This document shows positions 2,898-4,034 of a stretch of DNA of 31,902 bases, piece after piece. Source of the stretch: Chloroflexota bacterium (GTDB taxonomy: Bacteria; Chloroflexota; Anaerolineae; Anaerolineales; E44-bin32). The notes under the pieces are model-generated. The model ran no database searches, was not told the origin of the DNA, and saw only the letters and a list, made by a program, of their open reading frames with translations. Each line of letters opens with the position of its first letter. The first letter of the stretch is position 1. Location: positions 1-31,902 of the forward strand of contig JAPLGR010000191.1 in NCBI GenBank assembly GCA_026390045.1, in the 5' to 3' direction. The position numbers were made by a program, and so were the translations under genes.

Positions 2898-4034
2898 ATG
2901 CCAGGCCTGCTCACACTGATCGGGTCAGGCGAGGTGTCGGCCGGGATGACCCGCCTGCACCGGCATTTGCTCGCCCGCTTCGGCGCTCCCGCCCGCGCCG
3001 CTTTCCTCGACACACCCGCTGGCTTTGAACTGGGCGTCGAAACGATCCACGCGCGCTTCCGCGACTACGTCGAGCGCCGGTTGGAAGTCCCCATGGAACT
3101 CGCCACCTTCCGGTCGGCGTCCGCACCACCGGAAACGATTGCCCTGGCCCTGCGTGCGCTGGCGGGCGCCAACTACATTCTCGCCGGACCGGGCAGCCCG
3201 AGCTACGCGGTCTCCCAATGGCGAGGGTCCGCAGTCTACGACGCCATCGTTTCGCGCTGGAAGGCGGGCGCCCAGCTCGTCTGGGCCTCCTCGGCAGCCA
3301 TCGCCCTGAGCCGCTACCTGCTCCCGGTGTATGAGATCTACAAGGTCGGTGCACCGCTCCACTGGTTGGATGGACTCGACCTTCTCGGCGACTATGGCTT
3401 GAGCCTGGCCATCGTCACGCATTGGGACAACGCCGAAGGCGGGACGCACGACACGCGTGCCTGCTTCATGGGAATGGACCGATTCGAGCGGTTGCGAAGC
3501 ATGTTGCCGGGCAATGCGGTCACGCTCGGCATCGATGAGCACACCGCCTGCACACTCGACCTGCAGGCCGGGACGGTCGAAGTGCGCGGCCGCAGCGGCA
3601 TCACCATCCTCGCCAGCGACGTCCACCGCCGGCATATGCACGGGGAAACCTTCCCTATCGACGAACTCCGCCCCCGCGTTACCTCTTCATCGAGATCCGT
3701 CGCATCTGCGATCGCACCTGCTGCAGAGGGTCGTGCCCGCGAGGCCCGCGATCTGCTCACCCGGGGTGAGCTTGTCCCTGGCTTGCAGCTCCTCGCCGAG
3801 GCCGCACCTTCAGAGCTCGCACCGCTGCTGGCACTGGCGGCGCAATCTGCTCAGGGGCTGAGCCGCGCGACCCCTCCACCCGATCAGTTGATCACACTCC
3901 TGATTCGGGTACGCGATGCACTGCGCGCGGCCAAACAGTGGCAGCTGTCCGATCAGGTGCGCGATGGCCTGAGTGCCCTCGGCATCAGCCTGCAGGATTC
4001 TCCCACCGGGACGACCTGGTCTCGCGCTCCATAG
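2898..4034 (+). CDS. Peptidase S51 / cyanophycinase-like hydrolase fused to a C-terminal CysRS anticodon-binding-like domain
   Basis: Real start is ATG 2898 after a GGAGAGG SD; the track ORF extension back to 2019 is antisense to dnaK. Motifs [20 protein letters not shown] (nucleophile elbow), VTHWD and LGIDEHTA. C-terminus [38 protein letters not shown] matches the CysRS C-terminal pattern. Confidence 0.8.

Follow-up and report, generated by a model that had tools for sequence, protein, structure and literature searches.

The window is a 31,902-nucleotide stretch of DNA from a Chloroflexota metagenome assembly (contig JAPLGR010000191.1). It contains a gene, here called S51-CysS_C, that appears to couple a serine hydrolase of the peptidase S51 type, apparently an active one, to the module with which cysteinyl-tRNA synthetase (CysRS) reads the anticodon of tRNA-Cys. 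The start is correct, since full-length homologues (375–385 aa) begin at the same methionine. The gene looks monocistronic because it diverges from dnaK (813-2705, - strand) on one side and converges with an ATP-grasp-like ORF (4120-5025, - strand) on the other. Domain boundaries and key residues are given in Table 1.

The ORF at 4120-5025 encodes 301 aa with no match in Pfam or among PDB sequences, and belongs to unnamed clusters that are mostly from Chloroflexota. Its Atlas model (pTM 0.90) resembles ATP-grasp ligases of the RimK/glutathione-synthetase type (TM 0.72–0.76). We treat its adjacency as incidental because the ORF is absent from the closest related locus (L006).

Table 1. Features of the S51-CysS_C gene and of the protein it encodes (window positions)
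Feature	Positions	Strand	Details and evidence
S51-CysS_C gene	2898-4034	+	378 codons + stop; stop-free translation
Peptidase-S51-fold catalytic domain, residues 1-258	2898-3671	+	AlphaFold2 pLDDT 95-98; Foldseek; conservation
Ser131, putative nucleophile, xSAA elbow in WASSAA (residues 129-134)	3288-3290	+	Conservation; alignment with 6nqc
His175, putative general base, in VTHWD (residues 173-177)	3420-3422	+	H in 149/151; invariant in 80-sequence alignment
Glu214, putative triad acid, in GIDEHTA (residues 211-217)	3537-3539	+	Conservation; GIDE alignment
Linker, residues 259-330	3672-3887	+	AlphaFold2 model; family profile versus E. coli CysRS
CysRS-type C-terminal anticodon-binding alpha/beta domain, residues ~331-376	3888-4025	+	phmmer; profile; conservation

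The S51 catalytic domain

We modelled the window protein with AlphaFold2 from an 80-sequence alignment (mean pLDDT 92.6) and searched the N-terminal domain of the model against the PDB with Foldseek. The best 20 matches are all peptidase S51 structures, with E-values from 7e-16 to 3e-7. The match to 6nqc, a 'cyanophycinase-like exopeptidase' from an acI-B1 actinobacterium, has an E-value of 7e-16 and a TM-score of 0.83 by target; cyanophycinase and PepE follow at about 1e-11, and pseudo-CphB is also among the S51 structural matches. The fold is thus common to 6nqc, the cyanophycinase CphB (3en0/7uqw) and the aspartyl dipeptidase PepE (1fy2/6a4r), over E-values of 7e-16 to 1e-11 and TM-scores by target of 0.70–0.83. 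Sequence profiles agree. The family profile matches 6nqc with an E-value of 3e-15, aligning Ser131 with the serine of its CSAGA motif and the GIDE motif with both 6nqc and cyanophycinase. The window protein by itself gives a weak phmmer match to 6nqc among PDB sequences, over residues 3-141.

The putative catalytic triad is conserved in at least 94% of 151 family representatives at 50% identity: Ser131 in 149/151, His175 in 149/151 and Glu214 in 142/151. Glu214 is presumably the triad acid, following the assignment in the literature on PepE and CphB. Around these residues the family has motifs of its own, namely GSGE (9-12), GPGSP (97-101), PVYExYKxG (143-151) and NxEGGxHDTRxC (178-189). The near-invariant N-domain positions among the 151 representatives are GSGE, GPGSP, S131, PVYExYKxG, H175, N178, D185-T186, C189, R195 and GxDEHT. 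An earlier reading of this DNA, made from the letters alone (the sequence-only reading), had proposed an S51-type N-terminal domain with a Ser/His pair on the strength of WASSAA, VTHWD and GIDEHTA. All three motifs lie at the codons it gave, and the fold, the profile alignments and the conserved triad bear the proposal out.

The window protein also differs from known S51 enzymes. It is only 14–20% identical to them, has extra conserved inserts (PVYExYKxG and HDTRxC), and falls below the cut-offs of both PF03575 and TIGR02069. In Pfam, PF03575 gives no match to it at E<=1, and its score against the TIGR02069 cyanophycinase equivalog is 14.1 bits against a cut-off of 126.6. One homologue reaches 20.9 bits where the curated S51 threshold is 23.9. 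N-terminal of the CysRS-like region, neither Pfam nor NCBIfam matches the window protein. Judged by its sequence scores, it is not a cyanophycinase equivalog. Net charge is acidic in both the S51 domain (mean -5.9) and the linker (mean -5.1), so no RNA-binding surface is evident around the catalytic site. To our knowledge, S51 enzymes are known solely as peptidases of free peptides. The window protein carries a C-terminal module of tRNA-synthetase origin that is present in no characterised S51 enzyme.

The CysRS-derived C-terminal module

Searching PDB sequences with phmmer gives significant matches to CysRS C-termini alone (3tqo, 8qhp, 6ujd and 1li5; E 1e-7 to 2e-6). The alignment to residues 415-460 of E. 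coli CysRS (1li5) is gapless (E 2e-6), and the family profile matches CysRS structures with E-values of 5e-14 to 1e-11. By these profile values, and that for 6nqc, the homologies of both domains are far beyond chance. In the profile alignment, family positions 281-389 correspond to E. coli CysRS 338-460, so the piece inherited from CysRS is the end of its helical bundle together with the anticodon domain. The homology to the CysRS end covers the final ~100 residues of the window protein; over 77 aa, identity to the tail of the CysRS encoded in the same genome is 42%. PF23493 (CysS_C) scores the window protein at 13.1 against a cut-off of 23, and many homologues lie above that cut-off.

The key residues of the C-domain in the window protein are R339, R343, W348, D352, R355, D367, G371 and W374. 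The first six are identical to R423, R427, W432, D436, R439 and D451 of E. coli CysRS, in that order. In the 1U0B structure, R427 and D436 hydrogen-bond G34, W432 stacks on it and R423 belongs to the G34 water network (PMC12684709). CysRS has been re-targeted to another anticodon by mutating R427, W432, D436 and R439 (PMC13449415). The sequence-only reading had pointed to a CysRS-type module with the spacing R, R+4, W+9, D+13, R+16 and D+28, and had taken these positions for anticodon contacts of E. coli CysRS. The homology and the six identities are confirmed. These roles hold for R423, R427, W432 and D436 from the structure and for R439 from the mutants, while a literature search found no paper confirming an anticodon role for D451.

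The C-terminus is all that the window protein shares with CysRS. The TIGR00435 (cysS) model matches only over its positions 418-465, the last 48, at 25.9 bits against a cut-off of 340, and a motif search of the window protein found neither HIGH nor KMSK. This agrees with the earlier remark that the protein lacks a synthetase core. Compared with CysRS (1li5/1u0b, of which it retains ~338-461), it is without the Rossmann core, HIGH/KMSKS, the CP domain and the zinc site, and so cannot aminoacylate. Nor is the module what is left of a broken synthetase, since the genome has its own full CysRS and its own tRNA-Cys. The check for a complete cysS elsewhere in the genome that had been suggested gave one at G000:C29:4126-5511 (526 bits; cut-off 340). 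The single tRNA-Cys has a GCA anticodon and a U73 discriminator.

Conservation of the contact residues is high. Among the 151 representatives, counting non-gap positions, R339 and R343 are each kept in 141/143, D352 in 139/141, R355 in 138/141 and D367 in 137/142. Position 348 is always aromatic (W, F or Y) and W374 is near-invariant. Taken together, the CysRS residues that contact G34 or were mutated for re-targeting are at least 97% conserved across 8 or more phyla. Drift of the anticodon residues in homologues had been named as evidence against a tRNA-binding role. We find no drift in the 151 diverse homologues, and the Ser/His pair is conserved along with the contacts.

The two domains are also seldom separated. 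The C-domain is kept in 347 of 365 proteins that have the N-domain. In these 347 members, the spacer between the two cores is 22–146 aa long (median 77). The AlphaFold2 model of the window protein has a disordered stretch at linker residues 266-273, followed by helices at 275-288, 292-302 and 308-319. A short-linker subfamily (~345 aa) is missing the helical part and keeps the contact residues. The anticodon and the acceptor end of a tRNA are ~70 Å apart, and a linker of at least 22 and a median of 77 aa fits such a span. Depth of conservation at base-contacting residues, near-obligate pairing with an intact triad and a long tether argue that the tail still reads the anticodon of tRNA-Cys.

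Distribution and genomic partners

We searched 1.84 billion cluster representatives (clusters at 50% identity) with HMMER and found 1,925 clusters of the S51-CysS_C family at E<=1e-3, 390 of them at E<=1e-30. In a scan of one genome per species, carriers came from at least 596 species and 8 or more phyla. Carrier groups include Chloroflexota, Desulfobacterota, Nitrospirota, Nitrospinota, Actinomycetota, Dormibacterota, Syntrophomonadaceae, Rokubacteria and Aminicenantes. Source databases label the relatives as hypothetical, as cyanophycinase-like exopeptidase or, wrongly, as cysteinyl-tRNA synthetase; the last is the mislabelling that the sequence-only reading had considered possible. A literature search returned no paper linking S51 to CysRS and none describing 6nqc. 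The architecture is real, widespread and uncharacterised, and it is not CysRS. The window protein scores 468 bits, like members from f12 and f39, distant families of the phylum (480–514 bits). The short-linker proteins of its own order (f2) differ, with ~270–285 bits confined to the N-domain. Horizontal transfer, replacement of the subfamily or a contig placed in the wrong bin may explain this.

Gene neighbourhoods were surveyed at 80 loci from other species. A FemAB-like GNAT (Acetyltransf_6) lies downstream on the same strand in 30/80 loci. A further 28 of the 80 have a GT4 glycosyltransferase whose best model by a wide margin is mycothiol MshA (TIGR03449, 324 bits, against 118 for the runner-up). 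In 18/80 there is a PIG-L deacetylase most similar to BshB1/MshB, and in 21/80 a ThuA-GFO/IDH/MocA plus GFO/IDH/MocA pair resembling inositol dehydrogenases (IolG-like). Loci with such mycothiol-like operons are mostly from Desulfobacterota and Nitrospirota, where S51-CysS_C heads the operon. In Chloroflexota the gene is usually solitary, as in the window. At 12/80 loci, from Desulfobacterota/Nitrospinota, a short S51 paralogue (~230–290 aa) with an intact Ser/His/Glu triad lies directly upstream (e.g. L073:5181-5906). It occupies the position taken in other phyla by an uncharacterised alpha/beta hydrolase with strong conservation between phyla (self-scores 350–443 bits). This hydrolase adjoins S51-CysS_C in 15 loci from Actinomycetota, Dehalococcoidia, Anaerolineae and Rokubacteria; in L062 the two are fused. 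At 18 extra Chloroflexota loci the only conserved neighbours were the alpha/beta hydrolase and, at a single locus, the ThuA-GFO pair.

These associations point to cysteine/thiol metabolism rather than to plain translational proofreading. The MshA-like, PIG-L and GNAT-type genes that stand beside the family in other phyla recall mycothiol and bacillithiol biosynthesis, which uses an MshA/BshA GT4, an MshB/BshB PIG-L enzyme, MshC or BshC as cysteine ligase, and MshD. Unlike those gene sets, the family is also found with MshC-like ligases and without any MshA-like gene.

In the window's own genome (assembly of 3.37 Mb, 91% complete, in 736 contigs), homologues of the mycothiol-like genes are scattered. 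The window gene, with dnaK and the ATP-grasp-like ORF as its neighbours, is not in a mycothiol-like operon. Elsewhere there are a Fem-like gene (the FemAB-like GNAT) at G000:C346:212-1252 (- strand; 338 bits) and a BshB-like PIG-L deacetylase at G000:C554:1399-2223 (- strand), beside an M20 peptidase. The MshA-like GT4 is represented by two fragments only, C675:290-661 (- strand) and C319:6502-7074 (- strand), the latter at a contig edge. The C319 ORF opens with a beta-CASP segment, a sign that the MAG may contain chimeras or breaks in the assembly. An alpha/beta-hydrolase orthologue (245 bits) lies at G000:C14:6284-7072 (- strand), on another contig than the window gene and cut by the contig end. 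The genome has no MshC or BshC beyond the cross-match of cysS. A Sep-tRNA-Cys route was considered and rejected: SepRS and SepCysS are not in the genome (18 and 34.5 bits, far under the cut-off).

To assess co-occurrence, we sampled 251 genomes evenly from the window's phylum; S51-CysS_C is present in 65 of them. Fem-like orthologues were called at >=220 bits and the alpha/beta hydrolase at >=200 bits. The odds ratios that follow are descriptive only and overstate the case, because related genomes are not independent samples. The alpha/beta hydrolase is present in 27/251 genomes, with 23/65 carriers and 4/186 non-carriers having it (odds ratio ~25), and it adjoins or overlaps the gene in 10 carriers of the sample. 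The Fem-like gene is present in 76/251; 30 genomes have both genes, 35 S51-CysS_C only, 46 the Fem-like gene only and 140 neither (odds ratio ~2.6). The MshA-like GT4 is in 174/251, among them 50/65 carriers versus 124/186 non-carriers, which is no real enrichment. The tightest partner of S51-CysS_C is thus the uncharacterised alpha/beta hydrolase.

Fem-like and MshA-like genes are adjacent in ~30 genomes. Such pairs also occur without S51-CysS_C: family f3 has the Fem-like gene in 7/7 genomes and carriers in 0/7, and f24 in 8/8 and 0/8. An obligate partnership with the Fem-like transferase is rejected on these phyletic grounds. All five Actinomycetota carriers (5/5) have an MshC-like CysRS paralogue and none has a Fem-like gene, and three carriers in Chloroflexota f12 have an MshC-like paralogue (376–397 bits). 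Carriers in f39 have CysRS only, with no MshA-like gene, no BshC and no recognisable thiol pathway in their genomes, and with an operon in which the alpha/beta hydrolase and S51-CysS_C overlap. S51-CysS_C is not simply the missing cysteine ligase, since it is found with MshC-like ligases, with Fem-like enzymes or with neither.

Possible functions of S51-CysS_C

The family probably works on, or is steered by, tRNA-Cys. The sequence-only reading, which is borne out in part, had suggested as putative activities a trans-editing deacylase, a peptidyl- or aminoacyl-tRNA hydrolase, or a peptidase under tRNA control. Our preferred reading, to which we give a probability of roughly 45%, is that S51-CysS_C is a putative acyl hydrolase or transferase that is tethered to tRNA-Cys and acts on its 3' aminoacyl end. 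The C-terminal module would dock on the GCA anticodon of tRNA-Cys, and the linker, long and variable, would allow the Ser-His-Glu domain to work at the 3' end of that tRNA. In the simplest mechanism, Ser131 would attack the ester carbonyl of the (amino)acyl group carried there and form an acyl-enzyme. If water resolved this intermediate, the outcome would be deacylation of aberrant or surplus Cys-tRNA-Cys species; if an amine acceptor did, it would be cysteinyl transfer. The enzyme would act together with the dedicated alpha/beta hydrolase and, in several phyla, also with a mycothiol-like thiol-glycoside pathway. Its physiological role most likely lies in the economy of cysteine and low-molecular-weight thiols, not in primary cysteine ligation. 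The phyletic data favour an accessory role in cysteine/thiol handling, shared with the alpha/beta hydrolase.

Several observations count against the preferred reading. An isolated anticodon domain may bind weakly. The acidity of the catalytic domain and the linker is a main weakness; in addition, the gene is solitary in the window, and S51 enzymes are known only for acting on free peptides. The association with Fem-like (odds ratio ~2.6) and MshA-like genes is weak, and the f39 carriers are without a recognisable thiol pathway. The trans-editing factors YbaK, ProXp-ala, AlaX and DTD offer an analogy only, as hydrolases directed to the acyl group on one tRNA species; their folds are unrelated to S51-CysS_C and there is no homology. 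They recognise the acceptor end or rely on a synthetase, and we know of none built from a peptidase fold and an anticodon reader. More tentatively, and on balance improbably, S51-CysS_C may be a candidate new class of tRNA-directed enzyme, found in hundreds of species, in which a peptidase-fold Ser-His-Glu catalyst is tied to a reused synthetase anticodon reader. Acting with the alpha/beta hydrolase, it would either move cysteine through an acyl-enzyme from Cys-tRNA-Cys to a non-ribosomal acceptor or make cysteine release from a thiol store depend on the state of tRNA-Cys.

The habits of S51 enzymes, which are exo- or dipeptidases on free substrates, suit a different arrangement: S51-CysS_C and the alpha/beta hydrolase would free cysteine from a cysteine amide or peptide (e.g. 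Cys-GlcN-inositol-type thiols or Cys dipeptides), and the CysRS module would sense tRNA-Cys, for example uncharged, to switch on or localise this salvage. Tandem hydrolases suggest a degradative route, and the acidity of the catalytic domain fits. Since the gene coexists with complete MshC-type pathways (5/5 Actinomycetota carriers, three f12 genomes), a role downstream of thiol synthesis fits as well. However, an anticodon reader alone cannot distinguish charged from uncharged tRNA, and we know of no allosteric precedent in S51. No T-box or riboswitch tying expression to cysteine starvation was found among Rfam matches at the gathering score in the window or 12 related loci, and f39 again has no recognisable thiol pathway. 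We regard such a tRNA-gated amidase or peptidase as not very likely, but as a serious competitor of the preferred reading.

The operons that S51-CysS_C heads in other phyla, with an MshA-like GT4 and a PIG-L deacetylase but without MshC or BshC, raise the question of whether it replaces MshC, using a Ser131 acyl-enzyme to hand the cysteine of Cys-tRNA-Cys on to a glucosaminyl acceptor. The window's genome has MshA-like fragments, PIG-L and a Fem-like gene and no MshC/BshC. This is fairly unlikely given the Fem-like and MshA-like pairs that do without the gene (f3, 0/7 carriers; f24, 0/8), its coexistence with MshC-like ligases in Actinomycetota and f12, and the f39 carriers that have no MshA-like gene. 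The FemAB-like GNAT would also be a more orthodox aminoacyl-tRNA-dependent transferase. An ordinary S51 peptidase of the cyanophycinase or dipeptidase kind, whose CysRS-derived tail serves dimerisation, stability or protein interaction and has no tRNA role, we grade as unlikely. The tail is small and relatives are annotated as cyanophycinase-like exopeptidases. Yet a tail without an RNA function is hard to explain, because it is the base-contacting residues, not merely the hydrophobic core, that are kept (97% or more) over very deep divergence. The TIGR02069 score of 14 bits against 126.6 also speaks against it, as do active-site motifs that are family-specific and differ from those of the canonical S51 paralogues adjoining the gene in Desulfobacterota.

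If the module does read tRNA-Cys, S51-CysS_C would be the first case of an anticodon-binding domain directing a peptidase-fold enzyme to one specific tRNA. Translation and cysteine/thiol metabolism would then be joined by a widespread link that annotation has missed, in Chloroflexota, Actinomycetota (among them abundant freshwater lineages), sulfate reducers and Nitrospirota. Mislabelled relatives can introduce errors into metabolic reconstructions. With the tRNA and the residues for mutation already defined, the hypothesis is open to standard biochemistry.

The rest of the window holds several other genes. A phosphate-uptake cluster at 16948-22082 comprises phoU and an ABC ATPase (- strand) and a pstS-like gene, two permease genes and an ATPase (+ strand). 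It is adjoined by a MutY-like HhH-GPD plus NUDIX gene (22150-23301, - strand). A 1,289-aa hybrid histidine kinase with dCache, HAMP, GAF, HisKA, HATPase and receiver domains lies at 23249-27118 (- strand). At 27127-31902 (- strand), a gene that runs off the window encodes more than 1,585 aa of a surface protein, which has DUF11 repeats, a pilin-like Cna-B domain and, at its C-terminus, a sortase domain.
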